64,000 nt of DNA, from positions 310,001 through 374,000 of the forward strand of contig JAUCBJ010007289.1 in assembly GCA_032718475.1 (NCBI GenBank), given 5' to 3'. The notes below the pieces were generated by a model, which saw nothing but the letters and a program-made list of their open reading frames with translations, was not told the origin of the DNA and did no database searches. Of the stretch, positions 3,464-46,873 are shown piece after piece; position 1 is the first letter of the stretch; every line of letters starts with the position of its first letter. Source of the stretch: Nemertoderma westbladi. Lineage: Eukaryota > Animalia > Xenacoelomorpha. The position numbers and the translations under genes were made by a program.

Positions 3464-3472
3464 TTGAGAAGG

Positions 3473-19000: not shown

Positions 19001-19264
19001 ATACGTGCGTCCAAGCTCGATGTCTTCCTCGAGGTTTTGGATTTCTCTATCGAACTGTGGCAAGGCTAACTCCTTCACCGATTGGACTTGTTGTTGTAAT
19101 TTACGTTTCTCTAAACAATCTTGTGTTCCCTTTCCGATCTTCTGTCGAATAGCGTCTAAAGCGTTTCTTATAACGCTCTCCTCGACTTCCGTGGCGGGTT
19201 GCATCGGGTTTAATCCTGGACGATTGTAAGGATCAAAGGGCGATATTAACTGCCCGCGTCCCAA
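16034..19264 (-). CDS. Element 1 accessory ORF, C-terminal part: coiled coil, DEDDy-like 3'-5' exonuclease domain, CCHC knuckles and basic tail
   Basis: ExoI VTYDNEG, LPQPVLEMLFNERILKIGSAVYGD (ExoII), FVDTQ and ExoIII-like YTIFE. Knuckles CRLCASRDH and CHHCQLKGHASFDC. Homologous to 52743-55292. Confidence 0.75.
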   Translation of the reverse strand: MGRGQLISPFDPYNRPGLNPMQPATEVEESVIRNALDAIRQKIGKGTQDCLEKRKLQQQVQSVKELALPQFDREIQNLEEDIELGRTYSLQEFLDERLQRQAEENLLEEKHTKMDEREEAALAQPEAQILMTDLYSKTVRHPSMIPHFGDKLFATIQPQPVDISTGSQNLIAEAPMLQRPPIEAARVDGILVEPPDNRADLVRRMVHDVNIRARPLQNSFYGIKDHPYYVNLTQYYMVKPEDPTHNLKFLPLINPLDIVELEQLQKHLDQLVKVNSFRKPYNISRIEKDIEPPYNLDGFIKTRLVHWNLDVLFEEEKIQRYGNVETYTTQHMKYSDLPDANQCATLWHPVGMTLENATKEWNETLNVIEMYGVVTYDNEGSVPVGELGTTRMIHIRGLAGSTHVFTRACSDVIDYSFETLTETQKNLRHGQFELAQRYVIDTERKPAMGIDGSMLPQPVLEMLFNERILKIGSAVYGDLQNDFRNMENIPYPFVDTQLIAPWAEGRGFFRTMYANTSSNITKVQRTSIGHLAFQEYGWNFKVGNPINYQQVYGDHYSRLYFDGPLTAPGAVYSFMSVPLRPSLAIYTIFENTALAGWLADVCSRTIHAHPLILGTKLAKLDEHNKFIRFECFRRFLTPFRNVDSQFKDRALTKLSLRNSAAEKLDSAGFAIFKEICISNLHSSVIQRPRIPTGYSVMEIQTIGPPEETDTPTSAMHLEDEPICLESEEIQPIAPRNSDNDYIIEWYQGPQCLTAYDYRHANYVSRQRCRLCASRDHDTPMDTNVRCSYFQEQPTMEIYYAYCRLNNLHIFAVCPQFMTQCHHCQLKGHASFDCPFNRDLESVDEMITLRYIRAWEANADLHCDSRHRYYPGRAYEGVYAFHPYLFASVEQKSRISSYELLKRVGECISTKFVRKFLRSVNPSDLHSYNLINYIRQDPDYGDLFVNSHPELQEVYRRPYEYRARERELERTIKPRRFLTAYGPPTALVQTTRKGPVRAAVLKRALKAVRPLSPDVDVNQPSTSTGGYTDHNPTPSDAIILHPSPRSYSPPCKVARPKEKKTLASFKKLRKRRPRKKD

Positions 19265-19269
19265 TCCGG

Positions 19270-20286
19270 CTAAGTAGGATGGCGAATGTCTAACGAACCC
19301 ACTACCGGAGCACCACCGAATAATTGTTCGGGTAACACTAAGTCTTTGAACAGGGAATATAGTTCGGGAGGATCAGTGATACTGTTAGGATCAAGAGTTT
19401 GAGGTCTCACTAGAGAATGAGGAGGCCTGACCGAGTATTCCGGAACTCTGATCATGGGTTTATTCAGTGATCGTTTAAGACGAGCGATCGTAGGTGGTAC
19501 GTCGAACAGGTTTCGCTCGAAACTCCCGTAAGTGTAACGTGTAAAGCTGTGTTTAGCGCAACGTCTCCGCGGATGTTTATGTCTTTCAGTTTGTTGGTTG
19601 GGTCTAGGGCATTCGTCACAATAATACCAAAGACGTACGTCCTGCAGAGGAAATGCGGGTGATCGTTCTCCAGTTTTGCAGTATTCTTCCATTTGTTCAA
19701 AACTATCCGGGATAACAGGTAGTGGACGATCGGCGGTAAGATACATCATAGTGAAATAGAGCCGTTTGAGTTCTACCACAGGGTCATGATGTATACCTTG
19801 AGGATATCGAGTCTCTAGGTTCTGCTGACTGGCGATGTTGAGATAGGTTTCTCTCAAAAATTCTAGGTATTCGTTGAAGTCGATGCGTTTATCCGGTTCT
19901 TCAACGTTTTCTCTTTCCAGTCTATTACGAATAGAATTTTCGTGATCTATTCTCGGTTTATCGTTACGACTCCGCTGGGTATGATATTTAAATAGAACCA
20001 TTTCCCTCTCTGTATCTACATCGTCCGTATCATGTAAATCGATAGGATGGCCGGTAGTTAAGAAGTCCGTATACGTACCATTACGATTCGTATAGCGAGC
20101 GGTGAATTTTCGATAATCCAATTCATGCGCAAGTTGTTCTTGGGACATCGGCGGTTCGATATAACGACCATCGTCCTCTGTAATGGTTGGATCGGCTTCA
20201 CCGCGTATTAAGCTATCCACAAATGCTTGTAAAGGTAGAGTATATCGCTCCCTAATACCAAGATCATCTTCTATCAACTCCGTCAT
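19270..20286 (-). CDS. Element 1 accessory ORF, N-terminal part (338 aa); probably frameshifted from 16034-19264
   Basis: ATG start and a Cys/His cluster YCDEC..RCAKH. The homologous region of element 2 reads CGC CCA TCT TAC CTA GCC GGA, which suggests a 1-nt loss in element 1 near 19283. Confidence 0.65.
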   Translation of the reverse strand: MTELIEDDLGIRERYTLPLQAFVDSLIRGEADPTITEDDGRYIEPPMSQEQLAHELDYRKFTARYTNRNGTYTDFLTTGHPIDLHDTDDVDTEREMVLFKYHTQRSRNDKPRIDHENSIRNRLERENVEEPDKRIDFNEYLEFLRETYLNIASQQNLETRYPQGIHHDPVVELKRLYFTMMYLTADRPLPVIPDSFEQMEEYCKTGERSPAFPLQDVRLWYYCDECPRPNQQTERHKHPRRRCAKHSFTRYTYGSFERNLFDVPPTIARLKRSLNKPMIRVPEYSVRPPHSLVRPQTLDPNSITDPPELYSLFKDLVLPEQLFGGAPVVGSLDIRHPT

Positions 20287-20365
20287 ATCTGCTATCTGAG
20301 TTTATTAATATCAAATGAGTTTATGTTTAGGCGAGCGGGCGTCGCTGCCTACCTCTCTTTGCCCC

Positions 20366-21942: not shown

Positions 21943-24900
21943 TTAGGGAGGTGGTCGTGGGAAGAGTGTCTTGCCTTCCATAGTTTCCGGAGAGTTCTCT
22001 GTCTCTTTCCAGTAAACATAAACGACCAACTGGGCGGTTGAGTTGTGCGTCTCAAATATTATGCCTGGCTTCTTGAAGTTACGCCGCATGACGACGAGTT
22101 CTACCGAGCGCACTAAACCATCATCCGAGATGTGAGTCTCGATGATACGACCTGTCTGCCACCGTTTACGTGGGAGGTCTGGATCTACAATAAGTACCAT
22201 ATCTCCGGCGCTGACGTTTTCTTGCTGCGCAAACCACTTAGTTCGAAGTTGTAGCGTGGGCAGATAATGTTTCTCGAAATGGTCAGTGAAATGACGGGAT
22301 AGCAACTGCATAAGTTGCCAAGTTCGACGGCAGTATTCGTCTCCGTCGGCAATCTCCGATCGTGGGAGCATGGCTACAGGTTTCTTCAGTAGGAAGTGCG
22401 CGGGTGTTAGCGCTTCCAGGGAATCGGGACTCGATGAGACTGGCATAAGCGGTCTCTCGTTGAGATAGGCAGCTATTTCCTCCATTAATGTCCATAAAAG
22501 TTCGTCGGTGAGATACGCGCGGCATGGCACTATAAAGTGAAATGCGGTCTTGACACTTCTAATTAATCTCTCCCAACTTCCTCCCCACCAAGGGGCGTCG
22601 GCGGCGTTGAAGGTCCAGCTAGACGCTGTTATCCTTAGCTGATCGTCCACCTGTCTTTGGTTCCAGTCCTTCACGTAAGCCTGTATTTCGTTGTTGGCAC
22701 CAATGAAGTTCGTTCCCTTATCCGATCTCATGGTATTACTCGTCCCGAAGCGAGCGATCTGTCGGCGTAAACTTAAGACGAAGCTGTTGGTAGATAGATC
22801 GTTCACCATATCGAGATGGATGGCTCTACAAGTCATGCATACGAAGATGACACACCATCTCTTGACTATAGTCCTAGCACGATATACTTCAATAGGGCCA
22901 AATAAATCTACACCAGTATTAGTAAAAGGTGGTTCATAGAAGCTTACTCGTTCCCTAGGTAATTCTGCCTCTCGCTGTGTTAAAGGCCTACTGAATGCTT
23001 TCCTACAGGGTATGCAGTTCCTAAGAACTTGGTTCAGAGCTCTACGGGGTTTATAAAAATAATAGCGAGTTCGGATTTCGCTAAGAACTCGTTCTCTACC
23101 AGCATGATAAAGTTTGCTGTGAACATCTACAATCATCTTGATTTGTACTTCAAGATTTCTAATGAGTATGGGGAATTTAGTGTCAAAGGATAATGGCGCA
23201 TTGGTGAGCCTTCCTCCAACACGTATTAACCCATCTATCATTGTGCTAGAGAAGCGATCCCTTAAGCGCATCTGCGGATTTCTCAACAACAGGAAATACT
23301 TATCGGAATCCTCATAGCATTGCAGGAGTCTCAGTATCTGCTTATTGGTTTCTTCATGCTCCTGGTAACCAATTTTCTCTTTTAGAAACCGGTTGGATGT
23401 CTTATATTTGGGTAAATTTTTAATAACATGAACTTGCGCAGATGTCAATGGAGCGGTATCACTAATGGTCTTCGTCCTGAAGTAGTGATGATGAAAACAT
23501 CGCCTTAAATATGTGACGGCTTTACAGAGCCGATTCCAGGAACTGTAATGATGCATTGCTCTCTGCAGCATGGGTGAGATTCCTTGCGAGACGTCTGGTA
23601 TTCCAGATTTCCAATCTCTATCTCTAATTTCCACAACAGACTTATTTGTGGCGAGGGATTGTGGATCCGAAGCATAATTTCCGGAAGTATGTAATACAGA
23701 TAGATCGATCGTCGGTTTAAATAACTTCGATTTACTCGCCCGGGTTTTAGGTTTGACTGTCTCCGCTCCCTTGGCTTGTCTAATCTCCGCCGTAGTAAGG
23801 TGAGGAGGCCATTCATCCTCTTCCTTGCTCAGGAAGTCGGGTCCACCCAACCAGTCTGGAGTATCTATCAGTTCCTGTGGAGTTGCTCCCCGGGAGGCAA
23901 TATCGGCTGGATTAATCGTACCAGGGCAATGTCTCCATTGATCTATCTTTGTGCGACTAAGAATAATAGCTACCCTGTTAGTAACAAAAACGCTGAACTG
24001 ACAGACTTCATTGGTTAGATACTCCAACACGAGTAAAGAGTCGGTCCAATAAACCGTTTTCTCCAGTGGATAGTCGATTTGTTCTGTTACGTTCCGGCCG
24101 ATGGCTGTAGCGTATAAAGCCGCCTTTAACTCCGCTCGAGGAACCTTTAACTTGTTGTTAATCAATGCCTTAGAGGTAACCAAGGCGACTTTGATTCCAT
24201 CCGGAGTTTCGACTCGAAGATATGCTACTATACCTATTCCCATGTCGCTGGCGTCTCCAAACACATGGAGTTGATAGGAATACGTAGGAAGAACATGACC
24301 AAAATATGCACGGGAAATTATAAAGTTCTCGATGGCCGGTAGAGAATCTTCCAATTTCATCCATTTCTTCAACAGTTCTCCCTTAAGCGGATCGTCCCAT
24401 GAGTGGTTTTCAAGCCACATTTGTTGTACTAAACTCCGAGCAATCAATATAACTGGGCTAATAAATCCCAATGGGTCGAAATAAGTGCTCAGGATACTTA
24501 AACAAATCCGTTTGGTCCGAACTGGATTATCTCGCTGTTTTAGCTGAAAAAACAGGATATCTTTTTCAGCGTCCCACTTCAAGCCAAGCATCTTGGTTTC
24601 TGGAAGATCATCCTTTATTAAGTCTAGGTCTTTCGCTCCTCGGTCTTCTACCGGTATCGCTTCCAGAAACTCACGGGAGTTGCTGGTGAATTTCGTCAGT
24701 CGAAATCCACCTCTTTTCAAACACTCTACCGTTCCTTTCGCGACATCTATGGCTTCTTCTACTGATGGAAGGGACCTTAAATTGTCGTCCATGTATATAT
24801 TACGTTTGATGTTGTCTATCACCTCTTTGGAGAAGGCGTCTCGGTTGTCATTCGCAGTGGTTCGCACCACGGAGCAGGTGTTGGAAGGGCTTGATATGAT

Positions 24901-25137
24901 CCCAAAAGCCTGGATGGTCATCCAGTACTCTACCGGTTTCTGGTTGAGGTCTCCTTCAGGCCACCACAGAAATCTCAGACTGTCTCTATCTCTATCCAGC
25001 GCCTTGACTTGTAAGAACATTCCTTCTATATCGGAGGCGAACGCGATGGAATATTGTCTTAATCTTAAAAGTATTCCCAACAAAGATTGGAGTAAGTTGG
25101 GTCCTGGTAACAACTCGGAATTGAGGGATTGGCCCAT
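21943..25137 (-). CDS. pol: Element 1 pol: RT, RNase H and integrase (continues the gag-PR frame past a premature stop)
   Basis: DIEGMFLQV, YMDD, HVFGDAS, YWTDS, NPADIASRG, H..H..C..C, GVDLFGP, SDKGTNF and GGSWER. There is an apparent frameshift near 22045, before RPVGRLCLL. Confidence 0.92.
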   Translation of the reverse strand: MGQSLNSELLPGPNLLQSLLGILLRLRQYSIAFASDIEGMFLQVKALDRDRDSLRFLWWPEGDLNQKPVEYWMTIQAFGIISSPSNTCSVVRTTANDNRDAFSKEVIDNIKRNIYMDDNLRSLPSVEEAIDVAKGTVECLKRGGFRLTKFTSNSREFLEAIPVEDRGAKDLDLIKDDLPETKMLGLKWDAEKDILFFQLKQRDNPVRTKRICLSILSTYFDPLGFISPVILIARSLVQQMWLENHSWDDPLKGELLKKWMKLEDSLPAIENFIISRAYFGHVLPTYSYQLHVFGDASDMGIGIVAYLRVETPDGIKVALVTSKALINNKLKVPRAELKAALYATAIGRNVTEQIDYPLEKTVYWTDSLLVLEYLTNEVCQFSVFVTNRVAIILSRTKIDQWRHCPGTINPADIASRGATPQELIDTPDWLGGPDFLSKEEDEWPPHLTTAEIRQAKGAETVKPKTRASKSKLFKPTIDLSVLHTSGNYASDPQSLATNKSVVEIRDRDWKSGIPDVSQGISPMLQRAMHHYSSWNRLCKAVTYLRRCFHHHYFRTKTISDTAPLTSAQVHVIKNLPKYKTSNRFLKEKIGYQEHEETNKQILRLLQCYEDSDKYFLLLRNPQMRLRDRFSSTMIDGLIRVGGRLTNAPLSFDTKFPILIRNLEVQIKMIVDVHSKLYHAGRERVLSEIRTRYYFYKPRRALNQVLRNCIPCRKAFSRPLTQREAELPRERVSFYEPPFTNTGVDLFGPIEVYRARTIVKRWCVIFVCMTCRAIHLDMVNDLSTNSFVLSLRRQIARFGTSNTMRSDKGTNFIGANNEIQAYVKDWNQRQVDDQLRITASSWTFNAADAPWWGGSWERLIRSVKTAFHFIVPCRAYLTDELLWTLMEEIAAYLNERPLMPVSSSPDSLEALTPAHFLLKKPVAMLPRSEIADGDEYCRRTWQLMQLLSRHFTDHFEKHYLPTLQLRTKWFAQQENVSAGDMVLIVDPDLPRKRWQTGRIIETHISDDGLVRSVELVVMRRNFKKPGIIFETHNSTAQLVVYVYWKETENSPETMEGKTLFPRPPP

Positions 25138-25164
25138 ATATAGAGTAGAGCCATCGAATACGAC

Positions 25165-28100
25165 TCATACTTCGTGGGGTTTACCGGGTTTGGGAACGTA
25201 ATGATGTGTTAAGTAATACGTTCTCTCAGTCACTGGTGTTCCTTCCGGTACTCGCTCCGCGTATCCCTTTGTTATAAATTTCTTCAACTGAGTTTGGTAC
25301 ATTTCTTTAGCTGAAGCATTGGCCGTAAGGCATTGATGTAATTGAGCGATTCTTTTCTCTGCCAAGGGTCTGTTATTTATAAATCTAGGTTCTCGTTTTC
25401 GAAATGGTAGGCCGATTTCATATCTACCTTGGTCCTTTAAAAAACGTGTAGTTGTTTCCTGGATTTGCTTGGCTCTTTCTTCTTCTATCGATAGGGCCTT
25501 ATCGTATGAATTGGGCTCTACCAATTCTTGAGTAAAGAATCGTACGGCGAGTTCGTCCCGAGTTCTGGCGTTGTAGCGCTCTATCTCATCATTTAGTTCG
25601 TCATTGTATTCAATGGGTCCCGATGGGCGAATCAGTTGACATAGGTTCACCTGGTTTTTCCACGTTTTGTTTTCTGTAAGTAGGTCGATTGTGTTCTCTT
25701 CATCGAAGAGTTGGTAGATGTCGTCATTATCTGAGGAGTATGGTGTTCCCTCAGTTAGTTCGTCCACCTCACTGCTCTCCTCTTCCCAATCGTTTACTTG
25801 GTATATTCGTTCTTGTGGCATTCTCTCTTCGAGAGTCCTGCGGGAAGGGCCAGTAAAGTACCAACCTACTCTAGTTCTTACCGCATAGGTTTGCAGTGGC
25901 TGCGGTTGAGCAGGCCGTTTCTCCAATGTTTCGAGCACCTCATGCGCGTTTTGGCCGATGAGTATTTGCACTCCAGGATAATCTGTCTGGAATCGAGGTA
26001 TCTTAAGATGTTGGATGCTCTCATCCTCGTCCCAATTATAAAGGTCTGCTTGGGTAGTAGCGAAGTTCTTTATAGCCACCATTTTTACCGACCTTATACC
26101 TTGTGCTCCTAATTTATCCTGGGGGGTGGACAACACACCTACATAGTAATCTGCCGTTAGGGTAGATTTCCAAACCTGCATAATTCCTGACATATTCAAT
26201 TTAGTCCGGAATTTGGGTTGTCCAGCAAAGATATCTTCGGCTAGTTCTTGATCGATGAATGTTCCTGTGCTGCCGGAGTCAAGGAGGGCGTTCACTATGT
26301 AACTTTTGTTAGGACCGTGAACTCTTACCTGCACTACAGGAAATTCTCTGATTCCTACGTTGGAAGTTGGAGCTTTCCAAGATGGTTGTCTGGCAAAAGT
26401 AGTTGGGGGAAACTCATTGTTGGTGTCCTTTTCATAAGTAAGTGCTCGATACACCGCGGTATTGATTAGATAACAGGATTCGTTGGCGTCGGAGAATTCG
26501 TCAGTATAGAATCCTTCCATCTCAGATTCTTGATCAGTGTCATTTACATCACTGAATTGGACATGTAGTTCGGGCTCACTTACCTGACTCGGGTTGTCTC
26601 GTTCGAACTCACTGTGTAACAAGATGTTATGTTTCGCGCCACACTTTGCACACTTTACGTCGGAGTAACAGGTTCGCCGTTGGTGTCCTGGTCTGAGGCA
26701 ATTATAGCATAACCGCTTATCCCACACGACTGCACGTCTGTCTACAAGGGATTTCTTTAGAAATTCAGCACACGCACTCAAACGGTGGGTCCCGTCGCAC
26801 AGCGCACAGTTAGGTTTTATGTTACTCACTTTACCTTGGGTAACCTGATGCACTCTCGTTCTTTCTTCGGGCTTTCTTCCGCGCATTCTGTTAGGAGACT
26901 GAGGAGGGGTCTTGGCAACCTGTTCTCTCCTATCGTTGGTTCGAGCCTTGTATTTACTTACGTCCTTTGAGGTTTTGCCAACGTAGTAAGATCGATCAGT
27001 GTCTTTCCCGCTGTCCTCTTCTTGAGAAGCTTGGCTTTCGCCGTCGTCAGTGTAACACACCGGTGTTACTCTTCTCCTAGAAGCGGGTTTCTCACTTACC
27101 TTATTTTCCGATGTTTTCTCTCTGGACTGCTTGATGAGTTGTAGTTTTACTTCACCATCTAAGAAGGACATGAGATCAGCCATGGTAGGGCTTCGTCGTT
27201 GTTGTTCATTCATGTACAACACTTTCTTGTCCCAGCGTGTACATACTCCACCCTTTGGTAAAGTAGAGACTACGGCTCCAATAACCATGGAACTCTGATA
27301 TTCATGAGATTTACCTAACCAGTCCAATTGTCTACAGATCTCCTGAATCTCATCGGAAAACTCTATAATCCCGCTACTAAGAAAGTTTCGGGGGGCTACT
27401 AATTTTGCATACAAATACTTAGCTATGTTATCCTTGTTACCATACCTGACGTTTAATGTATCCCAAACTTGTCTTAATCCTTCTGGATGTCCAATAAACT
27501 TTAACGCCATTAACTTGGGAGGTCCTTCCAAGCACTTGATGAGGAATCTAAGTTTCTCTCCGTTAGATAGTACAGAGTTCTGTATGCTATCTTTGTAATA
27601 TTCATTGAAAGGTAACCATTTCATCTCATCTCCATTGAATTTAATGATCTCTCCCACTTTGACCGCTTGGCGGGCTTCTGTTCTAGCCATCTGACGCGTA
27701 AAGCTTTCTTGGGCCATCGTGTTATTTAATATCGAATTATCGGTATATAAATTTCTCGGATCATTATCAGGTCTATAGGGAATATCATTAACAACAGGTT
27801 TATAATCACCCTTAATAGGGTTTGCTATAGGAGTTTCTACTTCACTAGCAGTATAGATGCGTGTAGGCTCCACACCTTGCGCATGTAATACTTCAGACCT
27901 AACAGGTTGACACAATGTTACTGGGGGTATTGGTATACCCTTTTGTATATTGACTAATTTGTCGCGTTCTAGCGCGATACTTCGCTGCACTTCTTGCAAT
28001 TCTGCCCTACCTTCCCTTACGGTTCCCTTAAGTTGGTGGACAGTCTCCTGCATCTGTCCGAGCAGGAGATTCATCCCCCGACGTCCCTCCTCTACCCACT

Positions 28101-30075
28101 CGACCGCCGAAGCGGGAGTCGCCAACATTGTAGCGGGCCGACGCGGGACGACGGGAGACAAATCCTTGATTTCTCTCTCAGTGCCCAGGACAGGGATATT
28201 CTCATGGACTGTTCTACCGGGTACAGGCAGTGTAGTACTGTGTAAAGGGAATTTAGAGTTAAGCTCTGGAAGTACAGGGGTCTCTAGCACAGGAGTGGCT
28301 TTGGGAATGACAGGCCTAATTATTTCAGGCTCATCAACTATAGTAGGGAGTCTTTTGACCTTAATAATTTGGTCTGTAGGTTCTATACTACTTAAGTCTG
28401 TGCTAGCTAGTTGTCTTCTAACAGCTGGGGGCAAATCAGGCAATTTGTGACGGTGAGATGTTTTTCTACGCCTGCTTAGACGAGATCTATTTCCTCCGCC
28501 TTCAGGATCGGTGGTTTCGCTTTCCTCCGATGATGTGTATCCCTGGCGTTTGGGAGTAGATCTTCTCATCATCTGCATGTGACTAGCAGTTAACTGTTTA
28601 TTTATGTTGTCTTGCGTCTCTTGCAGATTTTCCAACTCCAGTTGGGTAGTCTCCTCAGACGCTCTCCGTTCTGCTTCTGCCACTGCCTTTGCTGCTTTTC
28701 TTTCTACTTCTGCTTCTGCCATTGCCGCTGCTACTGCTGCTGCCTTTCTTTCCACTTCTGCTTCTGCCATTGCCGCTGCTACTGCTGCTGCCTTTCTTTC
28801 CACTTCTGCTTCTGCCATTACCGCTGCTACTGCTGCTGCCTTTCTTTCCACTTCTGCTTCTGCCATTACCGCTGCTACTGCTGCTGCCTTTCGGTCCTCT
28901 ATCCGTCTTTTCTTTACTTGTTCTTCTTGGACTCTAGCGAGGCGGAGTTTTTCATCAAATTTAGCTTGGTTCGCAGCTAACATTTCCGCATCGATTGAGT
29001 CCAACACAAGCTTGGTTCCTTCACTATTGGGGCGAAGTCCAGCCAGTCGTCTCCTCAACCCACGAACTTCATCACCCAAGAAGCGTTGATAGTCTGACAG
29101 ATAGATGTCTATGGCGTCTCTCCAGGGCGGCTTCTCTGCTGCTGTCTCTTCGCTTTCCACTTGAGAAAGGGTGGCATTGGTTGGTTCTTCATAGGTTGGT
29201 CTCTCAGCCAGCTGGGATTTCCACTGGGCCGTTTCTTGAACTTTGAGACCTACCCGCTGGAACCAAGTCTTGACAGCAACCTGCAGCAACGTGTCCTGTC
29301 TTCTTTTGGAAGTTTCCTCAAAGGCTGATAGGATTAGTCTAATGCGTAGGGTTCTTTCGCGTACTTGATAAAGCAGCTCTTCCTGCTCTTGAGGTCCTTG
29401 GGGTTGTCGAAACAGTTGTTCTTCCAATCTCTCTAAGGAGCCGAAGAATCCCTGCACATATCCTGCTGCCGACCTCTTCCAAACAGCTGGATCCATCGTA
29501 TCTTTAGCCACTCCCATCCTGTGTATATCTTCCCAAGTAGCTTCGGACAAATCTAACGGGAGTCCGGGTCCGGGAAAGTTCCATTGTGACTCGACAATAG
29601 ACATCAATTCTTCCCTGGCGTATCCCGCATAACTATCTTGGGTCGCTCGCTTACTTCTCGCCCAATCGGCTTGATGTTCCTCCACCGCAATCAATATTGT
29701 AGTTAGCACTGCGGCAGGAAGGGTGAGAAGGGGATCCGAGTAGGCTGTAGCCGCCATCTGCACTCCGCGTTCGGGGGTCAGCTCTACAGTATCCGAACTA
29801 CTGGAGCTATCGGGTCGCTGGGAACGAGTTTCTTGACTAGGATGTTGCTGCTGTTGGACAGCTGCTTCCTGGTTCCGTTTGACTTGGGCCCGAGTGCCGA
29901 TGATAGACCTACGGTGTTGGATTAGCTTAGGGTCTGATACTACTACTGGAGGGATGACCTTTCTTTCAGTAGGAGGTGAGCTGAACTCCTTTCTTAATCG
30001 CTCCACTCTCCTATCTGTGTCACAGATGGTTGTATCGATTAGACTGTCTGACAGGTTTTGCTGGGTGTCAGACAT
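25165..30075 (-). CDS. gag: Element 1 gag and aspartic protease
   Basis: KFNGDEMKWLPF, the BEL triple Cys-His knuckle (CALCDGTH..C, CYNCLRPGH..C, CAKCGAKHNILLH) and protease ALLDSGS. It ends at an in-frame TGA in HEV*VVFDG (expected RVVFD). Confidence 0.92.
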   Translation of the reverse strand: MSDTQQNLSDSLIDTTICDTDRRVERLRKEFSSPPTERKVIPPVVVSDPKLIQHRRSIIGTRAQVKRNQEAAVQQQQHPSQETRSQRPDSSSSSDTVELTPERGVQMAATAYSDPLLTLPAAVLTTILIAVEEHQADWARSKRATQDSYAGYAREELMSIVESQWNFPGPGLPLDLSEATWEDIHRMGVAKDTMDPAVWKRSAAGYVQGFFGSLERLEEQLFRQPQGPQEQEELLYQVRERTLRIRLILSAFEETSKRRQDTLLQVAVKTWFQRVGLKVQETAQWKSQLAERPTYEEPTNATLSQVESEETAAEKPPWRDAIDIYLSDYQRFLGDEVRGLRRRLAGLRPNSEGTKLVLDSIDAEMLAANQAKFDEKLRLARVQEEQVKKRRIEDRKAAAVAAVMAEAEVERKAAAVAAVMAEAEVERKAAAVAAAMAEAEVERKAAAVAAAMAEAEVERKAAKAVAEAERRASEETTQLELENLQETQDNINKQLTASHMQMMRRSTPKRQGYTSSEESETTDPEGGGNRSRLSRRRKTSHRHKLPDLPPAVRRQLASTDLSSIEPTDQIIKVKRLPTIVDEPEIIRPVIPKATPVLETPVLPELNSKFPLHSTTLPVPGRTVHENIPVLGTEREIKDLSPVVPRRPATMLATPASAVEWVEEGRRGMNLLLGQMQETVHQLKGTVREGRAELQEVQRSIALERDKLVNIQKGIPIPPVTLCQPVRSEVLHAQGVEPTRIYTASEVETPIANPIKGDYKPVVNDIPYRPDNDPRNLYTDNSILNNTMAQESFTRQMARTEARQAVKVGEIIKFNGDEMKWLPFNEYYKDSIQNSVLSNGEKLRFLIKCLEGPPKLMALKFIGHPEGLRQVWDTLNVRYGNKDNIAKYLYAKLVAPRNFLSSGIIEFSDEIQEICRQLDWLGKSHEYQSSMVIGAVVSTLPKGGVCTRWDKKVLYMNEQQRRSPTMADLMSFLDGEVKLQLIKQSREKTSENKVSEKPASRRRVTPVCYTDDGESQASQEEDSGKDTDRSYYVGKTSKDVSKYKARTNDRREQVAKTPPQSPNRMRGRKPEERTRVHQVTQGKVSNIKPNCALCDGTHRLSACAEFLKKSLVDRRAVVWDKRLCYNCLRPGHQRRTCYSDVKCAKCGAKHNILLHSEFERDNPSQVSEPELHVQFSDVNDTDQESEMEGFYTDEFSDANESCYLINTAVYRALTYEKDTNNEFPPTTFARQPSWKAPTSNVGIREFPVVQVRVHGPNKSYIVNALLDSGSTGTFIDQELAEDIFAGQPKFRTKLNMSGIMQVWKSTLTADYYVGVLSTPQDKLGAQGIRSVKMVAIKNFATTQADLYNWDEDESIQHLKIPRFQTDYPGVQILIGQNAHEVLETLEKRPAQPQPLQTYAVRTRVGWYFTGPSRRTLEERMPQERIYQVNDWEEESSEVDELTEGTPYSSDNDDIYQLFDEENTIDLLTENKTWKNQVNLCQLIRPSGPIEYNDELNDEIERYNARTRDELAVRFFTQELVEPNSYDKALSIEEERAKQIQETTTRFLKDQGRYEIGLPFRKREPRFINNRPLAEKRIAQLHQCLTANASAKEMYQTQLKKFITKGYAERVPEGTPVTERTYYLTHHYVPKPGKPHEV
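28690..28890 (-). repeat. 48-bp coding tandem repeat in gag, (KAAAVAAxMAEAEVER) x4
   Basis: Visible at both the DNA and protein level. Confidence 0.9.
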
Positions 30076-31399
30076 GTTTAGCTATACAGTTGAATGCCTA
30101 CTGCTATAGTTACAGTTAAAGCAAGTCTAGTAATTCAGTATGACCGTTGGCCTAGTACCGTTAATTTATTACAGTATATTAGAATACCGGTATACACTTA
30201 TAATATATATAAGTATTGTAAACTAGTTTTGTCACAGAGTACCAGTATATAATTTTAGCACAAATATATATAAATATATAATACGCCTATCATGAATACC
30301 GGTATACAGCTTACACTTATAGTATATATAAGTATAATTATGAACTAGAATTAATTACAGAATACCGGTATGATTTCAGCCCAAATTTATAGAAATAAAT
30401 ATAATAAGCCTATGGTAAATACCGGTATGTCAATTATTTTAGAATAATTGAATTTCTGAATATTTTAGGGTTACTTGGTTACTTTAACTTACTTTATTAC
30501 CGTTATTTAAGCAGTAGTCCAACTGATATTGAGACCTAGTTGTTGTATGGCAGGCCTACTATTTATAAATCGTTTGAGTTGATTTATAATATTTATATAC
30601 CCATTTAAAATGGGTTTTGTCAATATTTGAAATAAATGTTATTATTTCTGGGGGAAGTCACTACACAGAAGCTGTGCGCTCTCAGTGAAGTGCTACTTAT
30701 GGGACACTAAAACAGATAATTCTAATTTACCTAAGTTACTTAATACTACAAATTACTTACAATACGGGTGAGATTAAATCTCTAATTAAACACAACAAAA
30801 TATTACGTACGAAATTTTTAGGGTAATTTTACAGGAAGTCTACAAACCAGCCTAACAAAGGGTTAGAATTCTGGTTATTACAACGGACAGGGTACTACGG
30901 TATTTGAAAATAATAAGTAGTAGTAAATACACTGCGTTGTCCAGATAGGAAAATACCACCGCCTGACGACCTATAGCCGTATCGCTGTAGGTACTACGTT
31001 ATGTATCACGGAGTGTTCCTACCTGGAAGTTAATTACCGCGGACTACCAGATCCAACGTGCCTATTAACCACTTTACAACACAAATATACTGCCTACACA
31101 CTAATTACCTTCGGAAAGCACTGTACACTAAACCCTAAATTAGGTACAAATACTGGTACAACAAATAATCAGTAGTTAAATATACTTGAACAGTTAAAAG
31201 AACCACGGCATCTGCTGGAGTGACCGGAGCACAAAGTCACCAGTCTTTACCTACGCCAAGCAGCCCGTGTAGTACCGGGGTTAATTTAACTATAACGGTA
31301 TGTGTAACAAGCACAATTACTGTAGGAATAAACTTGGGGACATGAATGTTGCGAATAATCGCATAAACTCTGAATAATAAATATTACGCTACCCGTACA

Positions 31400-31945: not shown

Positions 31946-32124
31946 TGAACAATCTGAGCAGACTTACACGTCTTCAGCTCAATATTAACTTACATGTAAA
32001 TAAAACCGACAGAAATAAGTAAAATCTCAATAAAAAACCAGGGCGGCCGTTCCCTGATTAAGTACTAAGACCTACCGGTATACAACAATCAAAATCGAAT
32101 AATACTAATGTACTTATACTGGAA

Positions 32125-32362: not shown

Positions 32363-32416
32363 AGGTTTACCGGTCGACCGGTACTTTCAACTTTATTGCT
32401 TACTGCAATAAAGTCA

Positions 32417-32427
32417 ATAACTGTTAT
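32417..32427 (-). promoter_or_regulatory. Atypical primer-binding site of element 1 (ATAACAGTTAT), complementary to its own LTR
   Basis: Abuts the 5' LTR, does not start with TGG, and is the exact complement of the LTR motif at 33184-33194 and 15517-15527. Confidence 0.7.
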
Positions 32428-33622
32428 TGTACGCGCTTTTGAAGACCTTTAGCAGTTTAACCTGCCAAAATTTATATGTCTTTTGGTTTATAAATAGACT
32501 TTAGAAATTGACAAATATTTAATACCAATAAACACAACATTAGCAGAAGCCAGCCTAGTGCGCGTCCATTCACCCGCTGGATATACCCGGGAGACTGGAT
32601 TCTGAGGGCTTAGATTGTTATTGCAGTGTAAGCTTACTGTATTATTCGATTGATCGCTAATAAATAATTTCTGACCAATATTATTCACTTTCGGGAAATA
32701 TTAACAGTTCCTTTAGGACGTGGCGCTCTATCTAGGTAAACAGAGATATGACTTATACTAAACACAACGGTAAGTCGGTAAGGCTTATGATTCACGTATG
32801 AGGCGCATTCTTTAGGAAATGCTTAGTTATCAGCCACAATCATGCACACTACCGGTAACACACAATACTGCTCACTAATTTGCCGACCATCAATTAATTT
32901 TATCATATATAAAGAGAACAGCAACTGACTCATGTAGTGCTTATCAAATAGCATTAAATTCACTACAAACCACAATAATATAAGTCGCAATCGCTATATG
33001 TAACCCGTCTCTCTAACCTGTAGTGTATCAAGAAAATTGGGAAATTTGGGTTCTTTATAGATGTTCTCCAAATAATATTCAACCAAATGATACAAAATAT
33101 GACAACAGTAAATAGCAGTCTAATAATGTATGTTGAACCGATAATGTAAGACTGAACTGGACTGTTAAGACTTGATTGAGCCGATAACAGTTATAAGCTC
33201 TATAATCTAAGCCTACTAATGTTTCTTCTAAAGTCTGAAACGAATTGACTCTAGAGCCGGTGTTCTTGGCCTAGATAGAAACAACACAACAGTATCACAA
33301 AAAAACAGTAAGACTGAACACTCCTAGCATGATCTGCCAAATATCTCCACATCGACAGAAAAAATCGCTCTGATTGGCTGTTAAGCTAAACAAAGAACCA
33401 TGTGTCCAATGGCCGTTTCCATGTCAGCAACCAGCTGTTAGATGTCGTAATCTGAATCATCAAGGCTAAGCTGTGCCAGGGTATTTGACGCATTGCGGGT
33501 TTTTTGCCTTACCATGTCCGCCAAAGCACACATACAGAAGAATGACTTTTATGTCCGTTAAAACACCTATAACGGTACCTTGCGGGCGAGGGGGACTGAT
33601 TATATCCGCAAAAGCTTTTACA
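32428..33622 (-). repeat. 5' LTR of element 1 (1195 bp)
   Basis: The minus strand reads TGTAAAAGCTTTTGCG...CAAAAGCGCGTACA, with a CCAAT box near 33375. Confidence 0.95.
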
Positions 33623-36004: not shown

Positions 36005-37242
36005 TGTTCGCGCTTTCAGACCTTTGGCAGTTTAACCCGCCAAATTAGGATGTCTTCTAGATAATAAATCGCTTTAGCCTCTAACAAGTATTTGATTCAC
36101 TACACTAGTTGAAACCAATCTGTGCGCGATCATTCACCCGTTGGATATACCCGGGAGATTGATTTCGACAGCTTAATCTTATTGCTATGTAAGCCTAATG
36201 TATTATTCGACTGACAGTATTATATAATCTCTGACAATATTATTCACCTTCGGGGAATATTAACAGTTCCTTTAGGACGTGGCGCTCTATCTATATAAAC
36301 AGAGTTATGACTTAAACTACTCACAACGATATGGCTCAGTTATAATTCACATATATGTCGCATTCTTTAGGAAATGCTTCTTTATCAGTTTCACTCATAC
36401 ACAATGCTGCACAATACTGCACACTAATCTGCCAATCTTCACTGATTTTAGTCACATATAAAAGGAACACAGACTGGCTCATGTAGGGTCTATCAAATAA
36501 CATTAGATTCACTTCAAACCACTTTAACATAAGTCACAATCGTTATATGTAACCCTTCTCTCTTACCTTCGGTATATCAAGAATATTGGGTTTTCGGGGT
36601 TATTTCTCGTTATTCCAATATAATAATTCATCAACAAATATAATGAATAACCGACAGCAAAATCAGTAAAGTTAAGGTATAAATGATTTGGTATGGTATG
36701 CCGCATTTATGGATGTTATGCAGGTCGATAAAGGATATATGTCCTTATAATTAAGCCTACTAGTGTAAGGCTAAAGCAGAAAAGCACAAAATACTCTAAA
36801 GCCGTTCTTCCTGGCTTAGAATCACTAACAACACTGATAAGAATAACTATAAGAATACCAGCTACCCTTATTCCACGAAGCTCCCGTCCAACACAGAGGA
36901 TGAGCATTGAGATAGGAAAATTCAGTTCAGTAGCTCTGTGATAGGTCAAAATCAAAGCCAACTCAAATCCTATTGGCAGATACAGAAAGCTGCAACGTGG
37001 CAATATCAGCCGTTAGCCGTCGTCATGGTAGCGACACTGTTTTCAAGAGTATCGAGCTTTTTACGTCATGAAATTGCAGATTATGTCCTCTAAAGTACAA
37101 ATACAGTTCAAATACAGAAGAAATGACTTTTATGTCCTCTAAAACACCAGTACAGCAAGGACACGGCCTTTTTATGCCTGGCAAACCAACTACAGAGTAC
37201 TTTAAGGGAAAATAACCGGTTAATGACGCAAAAGCTTTTACA
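36005..37242 (-). repeat. 3' LTR of element 2
   Basis: Plus strand TGTTCGCG..AAAGCTTTTACA; PPT-like GGGAGCGG on the minus strand at 37243-37250. Confidence 0.95.
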
Positions 37243-40352: not shown

Positions 40353-43300
40353 CTAGATGTTTGAAGGATTAGGGAGGTGGTCGTGGGAAGAGAATCTTGC
40401 CTTCCACAGTTTCCGGAGTCCTCCATTCCCTTCCGATAAACACAAACGACCGACTGGGTGATTGAGTCGCTGCATCCTGAATACAATTCCAGGTTTCCTC
40501 TTCGTCCTGGAATAGTGACGATAGAAACATCGCTCAAAGTATATGACGGCGTCACAAAGCCGATTCCAGGAGCTATAGTGGTCCGTCGCTCTCTGCAGGA
40601 GAGGTGAGAGTCCCTGCGAGACGTCTGATGTTCCAGAGCTCCAATCGCTCTCTCTGATCTTCATGAAGGATCCACTCGCGGTGGGGAGGCCCAGATCCAC
40701 GGCGTCGTCCCTGGCAACATGTAATACCGACAGATCTATCCCGGGTTCAAATAACTCCGATCCACCCGTCCGGGTTTTAGGTTTGACTTTCTCCGCTCCC
40801 TTGGCTGGTCTAATCTCAGTCGGAGTAAGATGGGGAGGCCATTCATCCTCCTTACTCAGGAAGTCGGGTTCACCTAACCGGTCTGTAGGATCTGTCAGTT
40901 CTTGAGGAGTTGCTCCTCTGGAAGCGATGTCAGTTGGATTAAACTTATTGGGGCAATATCTCCATTGATCTACATTGGAGCTAAGATTGTCATTATCTGA
41001 GGAGTGTGGTGTTCCCTCAGTTGGGTCGTCTCCCTCACTAGTATCATCTTCCCATTCACTCACCTGGCAGACGCGATCTTGAAGCAGTCTTTCCCTGAGC
41101 GTTCTACGGGAAGGTCCAGTAAGGTACCAACCTACTCTAGTTCTTACCGCATAGGTCTGTAGTGGCTGCGGTTGAGCAGGTCGTTTCTCTAATGTCTCCA
41201 GCGCCTCATGCGCGTTTTGGCCGATGAGTATTTGCACTCCAGGATAATCAGTCTGGAATCGAGGTATGTTAAGATGTTGGATGCTCTCATCCTCGTCCCA
41301 ATTATAAAGGTCTGCTTGAGTAGTAGCGAAGTTCTTTATAGCCACCATTTTCACTGACCTTATGCTATGTTCTCCTAGTTCGTCCTGGGGGGTGGACAAC
41401 GCGCCTACATAATAATCAGCTGTTACGGTAGATTTCCAAACTTGCATGATTCCTGACATGTTTAGCTTGGTTCGGAACTTGGGTTGTCCAGCAAAGATGA
41501 CTTCGGCTAGTTCTTTATCGATGAATGTTCCTGTGCTACCGGAGTCCAGGAGGGCGTTCACTATATAGCTCTTCTGAGGTCCGTGGACCCGTAACTGGAC
41601 TACAGGAAATTCTCGGATTCCTATATTGAAAGTTGGCGCTTTCCAAGATGGTTGTTGATCTGAAGTAGTTAGGGTGAGGTCGCTGTCTGTGTCTTTCTCA
41701 TACATGAGTGCTCGATAAACTGCGGTGGTGTTTATTAAGTAACAGGATTCGTTTTCGTCGGAGAACTCGTCTGTATAGAATCCTTCCATCTCAGATTGAT
41801 CAGTGTCGTTCACATCACTGAATTGGACATGTAGTTCGGACTCACTTACCTGACTCGGGCTGTTTCGTTCGAATTCCGTGTGCAACAAGATATGATGTTT
41901 TGCGCCGCACTTTGCACACCTTGCGTCGGAGTAACAGGTTCGCCGTTGGTGTCCTCGTCTGAGGCAATTATAACACAACCGCTTATCCCACATGACTTCA
42001 CGTCTATCCTTTAGTGATTTCTTCAGGAATTTATCACACGCATTTAAACGGTGGGGCCCGTCGCACAGCACACATTTCGGCTTGATGTTACTTACTTTAA
42101 CCTGTGCTATGTGGTGCACACTTGTTCTTTCCTCGGGCTTTCTCACCTGAATTCTTTTAGGAGACGTAGGAAGGGTTTTTTGTACCGGTTCCCTTCTGTC
42201 ATTGGGTCGAGACTTGGATTTACTTACCTGATCTTTAGGCATTTTATTGACATAATAAGATCTGTCAGTGTCTTTCCCGCTGTCCTCTCCTTGAGAAGTT
42301 TGGCTTTCACCGTCGTCGGTATAACATACTGGTGTTACCCTTCTCCTAGAAACGGGTTTCTCACTTACCTTGTTTTCCAATGTCTTCTCTCTGGACTGCC
42401 TTAGGAGCTGTAATTTCACTTCTCTATCTAAGAATGACATGAGATCAGTCATGGTAGGGTCTCGTCGTTGTTGTTCCATCATATATAACACCTTCTTGTC
42501 CCAGCGTGTACCTACTCCACCCTTGGGCAAAGTAGATGCTAAGGCTCCTACAACCATAGAATTCTGGTATTCATGAGACTTACCTAACCAATCTAGTTGT
42601 CTACAGATCTCCTGAATCTCATCGGAAAACTCTATAATCCCGCTGCTAAGAAACTTTCGGGGCGCCATTAATTTCGCATATAAATACCTAGCTATGTTAG
42701 TCCTATTACCATACCTGATGTTTAGTGTATCCCAAACTTGTCTTAATCCATCTGGATGTCCAATAAATTTTAACGCCATTGACTTGGGAGATCCTTCCAA
42801 GCACTCGATGAGGAATCTAAGTTTCTCTCCATTAGATAGCACAGAGTTCTGTATGTTATCTTTGTAATATTCATTAAAAGGTAACCATTTCATCTCATCT
42901 CCATTGAACTTGACGATCTCTCCCACCTTTACCGCTTGCCGGGCTTCGGTTCTAGCCATTTGACGCGTAAAACTTTCTTGGGCCATCGTGTTATTTAATA
43001 TCGAGTTATCGGTATATAAATTTCTCGGATTATGATCCGGTCTATAGGGAATATCATTATCAACAGGTTTATAATTACCCTTAATAGGGTTCACTATAGG
43101 AGTTTCTACTTCGCTAGCAGTATAGATGCGTGTAGGCTCCACACCTTGCGCATGAGATACTTCAGACCTAACAGGATGACACATTGTTACAAGGGGTGGT
43201 GGTATACCCTTTTGTAAATTTACTAATTTATCATGTTCTAGCGCGATATTTTGCTGCACTTCTTGCAACTCTAGTCTACTTTCCCTTACTGTGCTATGCA

Positions 43301-44618
43301 GAGGGAATTTAGAGGTAACTTCAGGGAGCACAGGTGTGTCTATCACCGAAGGGGTGATTTCGAGAACAGGCCTAATTATTTCAGTCTCATCTACTATAGT
43401 AGGGAGTCTTTCTATTTTAATTATTTGGTCTGTGGGTTCTGTACTGCCTAAGTTGGTGCTATTTAGTTGCCTTCTAACAGCTGGAGGCAAATCAGGCAAT
43501 TTCTGATGGTGGAATGTTCTTTTACGTCTGCTTAGACGAGATCTATTTCCTTTGCCTTCAGTATCGGTGGTATCGCCTTCCTCAGATGATGTATATCCCT
43601 GTCTTTTGGGAGTAGATCGATTCATCATCTGCATATTACTAGCTGTTAACTGTTTATTTATGCAGTCTTGATTCTCCTGAATGTTTTCCAATTCTAATTG
43701 AGTGGTTTCTTCAGTCGCTCTCCGTTCGGCTTCTGCCACTGCCTCCGCCGCTTTTGCCTCTGCCGCTGCCTCTGCCGCTGCCGCTTTTCTTTCTGCTTCT
43801 GCAGCTGCCACTGCCGCTGCTACTGTCGCTTTTGCCTCTGCCCATGCCTCTGCCGCTGCCGCTTTTACCTCTGCCGCTGCCTCTGCCGCTGCCGCTTTTC
43901 TTTCTACTTCTGCAGCTGCCACTGCTGCTGCTACTGCCGCTGCCTTTCGGTCTTCTATACGTTTTTTCTTTACCTTTTCTTCTTGGTCTCTAGCGATGCG
44001 GAGTTGTTCATCGAATTTAGCTTGATTCGCCGCTAACATTTCCGCATCGATTGCGTCCAGCACAAGCTTGGTTCCTTCACTATTAGGGCTAAGACCATCT
44101 AACCTTCTCCTCAACTCGTCATCCCCTAAAAAACGTTGATAGTCTGACAGATAGATGTCAATGGCATCTCTCTTTTGCGGCCCCTCCGCTGTCCCTTCGC
44201 TTTCTTCTTGAGAAGAAGTGGTGTCGGCTGATTCTTCATAGGTTGGCCGCTCATCATAAACCTTATCCACCATCTTCGCTCCGCGTTCGGGCGTCCGCTC
44301 AACAGTATCCGAACTACTGGAGCTGTCGGACCGCTGAGAAATAAGTTCTTGACTCGCGGGTTGTTGCTGTTCCGCTGCTTCTTGGTCTCGCTTGACCTGA
44401 GCTCGAGTGCCTATGATAGACCTACGATGTTGGACCAGCCTCGGTTCTGTTATTACTACTGTAGGGATGACCATGCTTACAGTAGGAGGGGACTTGGACT
44501 TTGGTCTTAGACGCTCTATACTCTTAGCTGAGTCCCAGATCTTTTTAAGACCCTGTCTAACACTCATTCTAGCACTTTCTAAGAGACTATCTGACAGTGA
44601 TTGGGTTGTGTCAGACAT
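40353..44618 (-). CDS. gag: Element 2 single open ORF (1421 aa): gag-PR fused in frame to pol remnants
   Basis: Gag, knuckles and ALLDSGS are intact. The junction HSSDNDN|LSSNVDQWRYCP removes RT-RH, the junction HYSRTK|RKPGIVF removes IN, and the C-terminal HPVGRLCL is kept. Confidence 0.9.
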   Translation of the reverse strand: MSDTTQSLSDSLLESARMSVRQGLKKIWDSAKSIERLRPKSKSPPTVSMVIPTVVITEPRLVQHRRSIIGTRAQVKRDQEAAEQQQPASQELISQRSDSSSSSDTVERTPERGAKMVDKVYDERPTYEESADTTSSQEESEGTAEGPQKRDAIDIYLSDYQRFLGDDELRRRLDGLSPNSEGTKLVLDAIDAEMLAANQAKFDEQLRIARDQEEKVKKKRIEDRKAAAVAAAVAAAEVERKAAAAEAAAEVKAAAAEAWAEAKATVAAAVAAAEAERKAAAAEAAAEAKAAEAVAEAERRATEETTQLELENIQENQDCINKQLTASNMQMMNRSTPKRQGYTSSEEGDTTDTEGKGNRSRLSRRKRTFHHQKLPDLPPAVRRQLNSTNLGSTEPTDQIIKIERLPTIVDETEIIRPVLEITPSVIDTPVLPEVTSKFPLHSTVRESRLELQEVQQNIALEHDKLVNLQKGIPPPLVTMCHPVRSEVSHAQGVEPTRIYTASEVETPIVNPIKGNYKPVDNDIPYRPDHNPRNLYTDNSILNNTMAQESFTRQMARTEARQAVKVGEIVKFNGDEMKWLPFNEYYKDNIQNSVLSNGEKLRFLIECLEGSPKSMALKFIGHPDGLRQVWDTLNIRYGNRTNIARYLYAKLMAPRKFLSSGIIEFSDEIQEICRQLDWLGKSHEYQNSMVVGALASTLPKGGVGTRWDKKVLYMMEQQRRDPTMTDLMSFLDREVKLQLLRQSREKTLENKVSEKPVSRRRVTPVCYTDDGESQTSQGEDSGKDTDRSYYVNKMPKDQVSKSKSRPNDRREPVQKTLPTSPKRIQVRKPEERTSVHHIAQVKVSNIKPKCVLCDGPHRLNACDKFLKKSLKDRREVMWDKRLCYNCLRRGHQRRTCYSDARCAKCGAKHHILLHTEFERNSPSQVSESELHVQFSDVNDTDQSEMEGFYTDEFSDENESCYLINTTAVYRALMYEKDTDSDLTLTTSDQQPSWKAPTFNIGIREFPVVQLRVHGPQKSYIVNALLDSGSTGTFIDKELAEVIFAGQPKFRTKLNMSGIMQVWKSTVTADYYVGALSTPQDELGEHSIRSVKMVAIKNFATTQADLYNWDEDESIQHLNIPRFQTDYPGVQILIGQNAHEALETLEKRPAQPQPLQTYAVRTRVGWYLTGPSRRTLRERLLQDRVCQVSEWEDDTSEGDDPTEGTPHSSDNDNLSSNVDQWRYCPNKFNPTDIASRGATPQELTDPTDRLGEPDFLSKEDEWPPHLTPTEIRPAKGAEKVKPKTRTGGSELFEPGIDLSVLHVARDDAVDLGLPTASGSFMKIRESDWSSGTSDVSQGLSPLLQRATDHYSSWNRLCDAVIYFERCFYRHYSRTKRKPGIVFRMQRLNHPVGRLCLSEGNGGLRKLWKARFSSHDHLPNPSNI

Positions 44619-46873
44619 ATTTACTTGTACAGTTGAATGCCTACTGCTATGATTACAGCTAAAGCAAGTCTAGTAATTCAGTATCACTGTTAGCCTAGTA
44701 ATTAATTACCGATACTGCTACTCAGTGTAGCGTGATATATATATAATATATTAGAATACCGGTATGCTTATAGTATATATAACTATATAAGTATTATTAC
44801 AGACCAGGTTTATCACAGAATACCGGTATAATTTTAGCACAAATATATATAAATATATAATAGGCCTATCGGGAATACCGGTATACAGCTTACAGTTTGT
44901 AGTATATATAAGTATAATTCTGGACTAGAATTAATTACAAAGTACCGGTATAATTTCAGCCTAAATTTATAGAAATAAAGATAATAGGCCTATCGTAAAT
45001 ACCGGTATATCAATTATTTTAAATAATTGAATTTCTGAATTTTAGGGTTACTTGGTTACTTTACTTACTTTATTACCGTTATTTGAGCAGTAGTCCAACT
45101 GATATTGAGACCTAATTGTTGTATGGTAGGCCTACTATTTATAAATCGTTTGAGTTGATTTATAATATATATATACCCGTTTAATGGGTTTTGTCAATGT
45201 TGAAATAAATGTTATTATTTCTGGGGAGTAATCACTACACAAAGCGGTGCGCTTTCAGTGAAGTGTTACTTATAGGACACTAAAACAAATAATTCTAATT
45301 TACCTAAGTTACTTAATACTACAAATTACGTACGATTCGGGTTGAGATTACAATCTCTAAATAAACACAAAAATTTACAAAAAACACAAAATACGAATTT
45401 TCAGGGTAATTTTACAAGAAGTCTACAAACCAGCCTAACAAAGGGTTAGAAATCTGGTTATTACAACGGACAGGGTACTGCGGTATTTGAAAATAATAAG
45501 TAGTAGTAAATACACTGCGTTGTCCAGATAGGAAAATACCACCGCCTGACGACCTATAGCCGTATCGCTATAGGTTCTACGTTATGTATCACGGAGTGTT
45601 CCTACCTAGAAGCTAATAGAGCTAATCGAACGTGCCTATCAACCACTTTACAACACAAATATAATGCCTACACTAATTACTTCCGGAAAGCACTGTACAC
45701 TAAACCCTAAATTAGGTACGAGTACTTGTACAACAGATAATCAGTAGTTAAATATACTTGAACAGCTAAAAGAACCACGGCATCTGCTGGAGTGACCGGT
45801 GCACAAAATCACCAGTCTTTACCTACGCCAAGCAGCCCGTGTAGTACCGGGGTTAATTTAACTATAGCGGTATGTATAACAAACACAATTATTGTAGGAA
45901 CAAACTTGGGGAATGAATGTTGCGAATAATCGCATAAACTCTGAATAATAAATATTACGCTACGCGTACAAACTACTCAAACAAAATGCAGACCGAACAC
46001 TGACAGACTACTATCAAGCCTAAACAAACTACGGTATATGCAGACTCCGAAATAATTAGGTAGTATGCGTTCTAACCCAGTAGTACGACTTATTCTTTAG
46101 TTGGGGGTTTACCTTACAGCATTCGCTGCTCCTACTTCCTAACCGTTCTTTATCGGACAAGTGATCTACACACGCTGCAATCCGTTCAGACCCAATAACA
46201 GCCAGACAACTATCCAGCCTACAAATTATCTAAATAAAATTATACGCTACCCGTACAGACTTACACAAACAAAGTACAGACTAAACGATGGCAGACTACT
46301 CTCAAGCCTAAATAAACTACAGGACATGCAGACTCCGAAATAATTAGGTAGTATGCGTTCTAACCCAGTAGTATGACTTATTCTTTAATTGGGGGTTTAC
46401 CTTACAGCATTCGCTGCCCCTACTTCCTAACCGTTCTTTATCGGACAGGTGATCTACACACACTGCAATCCGTTCAGACTTAACAGCAATCAGACAACAG
46501 CTCAGCCTACAAATTGTCTGTACAATCTGATCAGGCTTACACGTCTTCTGTTCAATACTGGCCTACTAACAAATAAAACTGACAGAAATAGGCCTAAGTA
46601 AAATCCCAATAAAAACCAGGCGTCCCCGATTAATTATTAAGACCTACTGGTATAATAATCCAAATCGAATAATACTAATGTACTTATACGGGAAGTACCG
46701 GTTAGGACTGTTAGGCCTACGGACCTACAGAAGTACCGGTTCTGGCAGTTGGGCCTACGGGCCTACGGCAGTACCGGTTCTGGCAGTTGGGCCTACTGAC
46801 CTACAGATGTACCGTTCAGGTTTACCGGTTGACCGGTACTTTCAACTTTATTGCTTACTGCAATAAAGAAGCA

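Follow-up and report, generated by a model that had tools for sequence, protein, structure and literature searches.

Two BEL/Pao LTR retrotransposons of Nemertoderma westbladi, here designated E1 and E2, have no tRNA site beside their 5' LTRs, and our analysis of the 64,000-nt stretch of DNA that contains them (the window) makes it likely (probability roughly 0.8) that their minus-strand DNA begins on 11 nt of the element's own LTR-derived RNA, folded back on the element's primer-binding site (PBS). As judged from sequence, the signature in E1 and E2 is real, non-chance, and compensated, with positive and negative controls across the superfamily. The proposal of a preliminary description that this BEL lineage self-primes gains support from the recurrence of the self-complement, with other letters, in distant relatives, from its absence from tRNA-type elements, and from the finding that it mostly spans a splice junction.

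The minus strand of the window holds the two related elements and part of a third (Table 1). The LTR pair of E1 is 98.75% identical, with TG..CA ends and a 5-bp target duplication (CTGTT); that of E2 is 99.84% identical (target duplication ACGAG). Pfam searches matched PF03564 in both elements and PF05380, PF17921, and PF18701 in E1; the order in E1 is a Pao-type gag (DUF1759), Peptidase_A17, an integrase after reverse transcriptase (RT) and RNase H, and DUF5641, and DUF1759 was found in E2. The closest proteins are BEL/Pao polyproteins with 38 to 45% identity, the named ones coming from cnidarians, echinoderms, fish, and other marine animals, and no chromodomain was matched in the Pfam search of the E1 and E2 proteins. 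On protein grounds, E1 and E2 are members of BEL/Pao, and it is the PBS trait that departs from the family description. They share with the Belpaoviridae (Semotivirus) the domain order and content, TG..CA LTRs of about 1.2 kb, a polypurine tract, and an extra ORF after pol, whereas the Belpaoviridae PBS is an 18-nt complement of tRNA-Arg or tRNA-Gly, used for priming by host tRNA, and E1 and E2 have neither; at 18.9 kb, E1 also exceeds the 4 to 10 kb stated for that family (PMC8742986). Given its deletions in pol and the extra ORFs, E2 looks non-autonomous. E1 sits within a 63-nt tandem repeat array (14677-14752 and 33623-34380), and its leader contains a 38-nt tandem repeat (32081-32358) of which E2 has fewer copies; the insertion target of E2 is an RT-like fragment. 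Between the elements lie two fibrinogen-C ORFs, 93.5% identical in DNA, and a laminin-G-like ORF (2820-3597, 13151-13877, and 34779-35558); these genes accord with an animal host.

Table 1. Features of E1, E2, and element 3, with positions counted from the first letter of the window
Feature	Position	Strand	Remarks
E1, whole element	33622-14753	-	18.9 kb
E1 5' LTR	32428..33622	-	1195 nt, TG..CA
E1 predicted self-primer motif, ATAACTGTTAT	33194-33184	-	LTR nt 429-439; exact PBS complement
E1 partner arm of predicted second helix, ACGCGC	32560..32565	-	
E1 U5-end arm of predicted second helix, GCGCGT	32431..32436	-	
E1 PBS, ATAACAGTTAT	32427-32417	-	non-TGG; directly after terminal CA of 5' LTR
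E1 leader hairpin	32391..32413	-	just after PBS; also in E2
E1 gag-pol, BEL/Pao type	21943..30081	-	in-frame stop at 25167-25165, at start of RT
E1 extra ORFs between pol and 3' LTR	16034..20301	-	no Pfam match at E 0.001
E1 3' LTR	14753..15955	-	motif copy at 15527-15517; polypurine tract directly upstream
E2, whole element	48122-36005	-	
E2 5' LTR	46885..48122	-	1238 nt
E2 predicted self-primer motif, ATATCCTTTAT	47618-47608	-	LTR nt 505-515; exact PBS complement
E2 partner arm, TCGCGC	47004..47009	-	one pair compensated against E1
E2 U5-end arm, GCGCGA	46888..46893	-	
E2 PBS, ATAAAGGATAT	46884-46874	-	non-TGG; abuts LTR end
E2 gag-protease ORF	40353..44669	-	large part of pol and extra ORFs deleted
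E2 3' LTR	36005..37242	-	motif copy at 36738-36728
Element 3, more distant BEL/Pao	51570-61089	-	pol with stops and frameshifts; 852-aa extra ORF; 534-nt 3' LTR; 5' LTR outside the window

The preliminary description had reported that neither PBS starts with TGG, that each has an exact 11-nt complement at a homologous site of its LTR, that all three differences between the elements are compensated, and that the geometry is correct for priming, and these observations held throughout. The coordinates are right, and the first bases contain no TGG; the motif is present in the 5' and 3' LTRs of both elements alike, it falls at a homologous LTR site by alignment, and all four 11-mers are unique to these places on the element strand. 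At the 3 of 11 positions where E1 and E2 differ, all three changes are compensated, such that the elements' own pairs have duplex energies of -10.1 and -10.4 kcal/mol and the cross pairs -0.5 and +0.9. The 3' end of the motif faces the terminal A of the LTR, where minus-strand synthesis must begin. A complement of at least 11 nt arose in dinucleotide-shuffled LTRs in 8 of 2000 (E1) and 6 of 2000 (E2) cases and from random internal positions in 6 of 3000 and 0 of 3000, the E1 rates being inflated because its PBS is nearly palindromic, which that of E2 is not. Two copies of the window family with linked motif and PBS, E1 and E2 themselves, were examined. Among the differences listed for contigs aligned to the E1 LTR (40 of 251), none falls at the motif or PBS, so this comparison is uninformative on covariation; in one run that may be RNA (X4), the motif was not covered. 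We found no canonical splice junction that yields the E1 or E2 complement. The 11 nt that follow the E2 PBS (46873-46863) have an exact LTR complement as well, at about 47265 and 381 nt before the LTR end; E1 has no counterpart of this second match.

Relatives were collected with the RT region of E1 and 40 aligned homologs, which gave a discovery set of 80 loci from metagenome contigs; Pol identity of the relatives is only 35 to 45%. In discovery loci with the LTR end visible in both repeats, most PBSs were non-TGG and mutually different, and the contiguous complements tended to be short. A loose scan that used every CA/TA anchor found complements of at least 11 nt in 14 of 51 loci and in 185 of 2550 swapped pairs; this null was too wide, and the scan was therefore dropped for a fixed-end test, in which repeat divergence sets the LTR end and only canonical splice sites are allowed. 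Applied to nine hand-picked loci of the discovery set, which had already been seen before the test was fixed, and from which a near-copy (L027, of L029) and partial, open-ended, or non-LTR repeats had been left out, it gave complements of 10 to 15 nt in eight, seven of them across a GT-AG junction with introns of 71 to 186 nt and one contiguous, against 0 to 3 of 3000 in controls. The ninth locus, L069, has a TGG PBS and a complement of 4 nt.

The rule was then applied unchanged to a held-out set of 47 further loci from what are apparently host contigs binned into prokaryote genomes; exclusion of 26 without an LTR pair, 2 with an open end, and 3 with non-LTR repeats (78 to 83% identity, no TG..CA) left 16. 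All four non-tRNA elements among these had an 11-nt junction complement (controls, 0 to 2 of 1000), one of them, L101, being counted as non-tRNA although a simple pattern flagged TGG in it. The 12 tRNA-type elements reached complements of 3 to 6 nt, with none above 6 nt; near-copies shrink the held-out set to about three self-type and five tRNA-type lineages. Over both sets, a self-complement was present in 0 of 13 tRNA-type elements. A wider, hand-anchored table of 24 loci, placed with the matches in view and hence descriptive only, has complements of at least 10 nt in 23 (19 junction, 4 contiguous), L036 being the one missed. In every case pairing starts 0 to 4 nt from the LTR end. At the DNA level, none of the 127 loci matched the window LTRs; viral contigs yielded no relative by protein or by a conserved LTR word, and prokaryote genome contigs yielded none by that word. 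Loci L081-L127, 47 BEL/Pao loci in contigs filed as bacterial or archaeal, including a Wolbachia assembly, look like mis-binned host DNA. Some LTR copies of L008, L011, and L077 end in TA rather than CA.

In most relatives, then, a GT-AG intron within the LTR interrupts the complement, and we infer that their primer is made by splicing this intron. Two loci are intron-less twins of others, L077 of L070 and the 3' LTR of L037 of L074, with joins that fall precisely on the predicted GT and AG; these twins are possibly collapsed or chimeric contigs, and both forms are nonetheless present as DNA. From such sequences, the PBS resembles a copy of RNA from the element itself, often in spliced form. 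The putative primer end is AC in 21 of 24 relatives and AT in E1, E2, and L005 of the 24-locus table, and such shared ends suggest a common cleavage or extension preference. Downstream (3') of the motif, E1 and E2 have homologous donor-like and acceptor-like sites (33017-32732 and 47446-47171, minus strand), which suggest an R-U5 intron of about 280 nt that would not be primer forming.

Contiguous and junction types are intermixed on the tree of the relatives, with 6 changes each, no fewer than after shuffling, a pattern expected from repeated loss or gain of the intron. On a quick tree (LG+G4) that also includes tRNA-type elements, the self-type label requires 2 changes, versus 9.4 on average after shuffling (none of 500 shuffles as low), which is compatible with a single origin of self-priming. 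E1 forms a long branch in a fork with the tRNA-type L069 and 22 self-type relatives, the order of the fork not being separated. We give rather better than even odds to a broader scenario, in which a widespread metazoan BEL/Pao clade swapped tRNA priming for self-priming, with a primer usually built by the spliceosome from an LTR intron; to both prime and transmit the intron, an RNA would have to be spliced in its 5' LTR and left unspliced in its 3' LTR, and E1 and E2 would represent a long-branched, uninterrupted lineage whose primer has the same last five bases as that of Tf1, a sign that the two superfamilies converged on one cleavage rule.

The 3' LTR of element 3 has an 11-mer (51810-51800) that may be an initiator; it follows a TATA-like word by about 26 nt, and its end is the complement of ATAAC. 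The prediction that the element 3 PBS is the complement of this 11-mer failed, as the majority loose end differed in four of four runs (agreement, 0.52 to 0.73) on contigs that come mostly from related subfamilies. In the wider family of element 3, the majority LTR-end sequence had no TGG in any of the four runs, and it points to a non-TGG primer site. A stretch with multiple CCHC zinc knuckles (26% over 73 aa; E 3e-5) is common to the extra ORFs after pol in E1 (16034-20301) and element 3 (52743-55301), both on the minus strand; Pfam and PDB sequences gave neither a name, and the element 3 ORF had no Pfam match. The N-terminal part of the latter presumably resembles a 3'-5' exonuclease, and similar extra ORFs have reportedly been seen in rotifer LTR elements.

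How the primer would arise can be modeled largely on Tf1. The LTR-derived RNA motif would fold back onto the PBS, and cleavage immediately 3' of the motif, with the element's RNase H as the probable enzyme, would free a 3' end that primes the copying of U5 and R, followed by strand transfer. The primer would later be recopied into the new PBS; in Tf1, according to the available part of one source, the PBS is copied into the cDNA's 3' end (PMC11042837). Recopying would preserve the match between motif and PBS with no need for paired mutations and would also allow a PBS to match a splice junction. E1 and E2 would represent the uninterrupted form of this system, with the intron lost or never present.

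Whether the motif is the very 5' end of the E1 and E2 RNA is close to an even bet. In neither element does a TATA box lie between -25 and -35 relative to the motif; a shared CATAAAAG lies at -359 in E1 and -396 in E2, and both have TATA-like words about 10 nt upstream of the motif, a spacing at which the start would fall 20 nt downstream of the motif's first base. On the side of a start at the motif, identity between E1 and E2 peaks at -30 to +9 (0.65, versus 0.31 to 0.53 in six bins upstream and 0.40 to 0.45 in two downstream). In both elements the predicted duplex is kept with 5' extensions of up to about 15 nt and lost at 20 nt or more. Folding was rejected as proof of the start site, since the duplex folded from the motif start is generic and persists when the interior is shuffled (37 of 40 and 34 of 40). 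Among the 24 relatives, six have a canonical TATA box upstream of the primer, five at -122 to -165 and one at -31, and as most of these boxes are far from the primer, an internal primer is probably common among the relatives. The same data bear on the alternative that survives best, itself unlikely: that the primer derives from the LTR and yet not from the 5' end of the same genome RNA, coming instead from a separate LTR transcript or small RNA in trans, or from the 3' motif copy if transcription starts downstream of the 5' one. The nearby TATA-like words would leave the motif in U3 in both elements, the motif is present in both LTRs, and cis and trans supply look alike in sequence; a cut inside the 3' U3, however, would presumably remove the 3' R needed for strand transfer, the canonical boxes lie upstream of the primer in all six relatives that have one, and the loss of the duplex with longer 5' extensions is a weak hint of a start close upstream.

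The regions around the PBS fold better than all 200 shuffles in each element (z of -3.6 and -3.5). Predicted structures include the central duplex, the leader hairpin, and a 6-bp helix that joins the U5 end to a site 125 to 135 nt upstream, with one compensated pair between E1 and E2; the leader folds as local hairpins with no clear third duplex, and in short two-strand folds the E1 duplex loses to local hairpins. The 6-bp U5 helix is reminiscent of the Tf1 'pretzel', described in the accessible part of its source as three duplexes around the PBS (PMC10085805). R-U5 is far better kept than U3 between E1 and E2, with up to 95% versus 31 to 48% identity in 40-nt bins (32731-32690 and its E2 homologue), and this conservation suggests RNA structure or coding. 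A region so rich in conserved hairpins could also host a pairing that is structural or regulatory (packaging, translation, or PBS masking), with another primer, for example, a protein or a host RNA. We consider this improbable: such a pairing would need paired mutations at every changed site, the simplest source of a PBS matching a splice junction is the copying of a spliced primer RNA, and the start of pairing within 4 nt of the LTR end is where a primer must sit.

Priming by a host tRNA half or fragment, with an incidental complement in the LTR, is less probable again. The E1 motif resembles an Asn anticodon loop, and ARAGORN found no tRNA in the window. Half-tRNA priming has been described in some Ty1/copia lineages, as reported in the available part of one article (PMC6317226), but one tRNA cannot match both PBS variants of the window, nor would a single tRNA primer fit the relatives, whose PBS letters vary among families; a tRNA fragment would also leave unexplained an LTR copy that changes with the PBS, and in true tRNA-type elements the LTR complement is absent in all 13 cases. 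Chance complementarity within AT-rich LTRs, despite the near-palindromic, AT-rich E1 PBS and the frequency of matches among swapped pairs in the loose scan, is refuted by the shuffles, the random positions (at most 0.4% per element), and the held-out set, as well as by a match at a homologous site of two elements with three compensated changes.

Priming by LTR-derived RNA would place E1 and E2 beside Tf1 and Tf2 of Schizosaccharomyces pombe (Tf1/sushi), which likewise lack a tRNA site and have an 11-nt PBS complement derived from the LTR, with the PBS beside the CA of the LTR; the E1 PBS begins with ATAAC, as does that of Tf1 in the accessible part of its source (PMC11042837). E1 and E2 differ from Tf1 in having a BEL/Pao polyprotein rather than that of a Ty3/gypsy chromovirus and are not Tf1/sushi members; about 770 nt separate primer and PBS, unlike in Tf1, and most relatives further differ in a primer that is apparently internal in the RNA and built by splicing. 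The available portions of four sources describe self-priming for Tf1/sushi and Tcn1 and predict it for copia TAR (PMC6317226, PMC4600332, PMC6934838, and PMC2864245). The TAR lineage (Houba and Osr-1) of plant Ty1/copia is, like ours, a case predicted from sequence outside Tf1/sushi, in another superfamily and another kingdom, and the part of its description available mentions no intron (PMC6317226). BEL/Pao replication is regarded by the ICTV as poorly understood (PMC8742986), and word searches of two BEL/Pao papers (PMC554778 and PMC3118150) turned up neither PBS nor tRNA nor priming. In the literature searched, in which subscription papers were mostly out of reach and which leaves absence from print unproven, we found no report of BEL/Pao self-priming or of a splice-built primer.

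Proof that reverse transcription is self-primed exists only for Tf1-type gypsy elements; for one plant copia lineage it has been predicted, and BEL/Pao would be the third superfamily. If our reading is true, it would explain BEL/Pao elements without a findable PBS and offer a new diagnostic for LTR annotation. Such elements would escape control through tRNA fragments, and a primer made by splicing would link the initiation of reverse transcription with host RNA processing.
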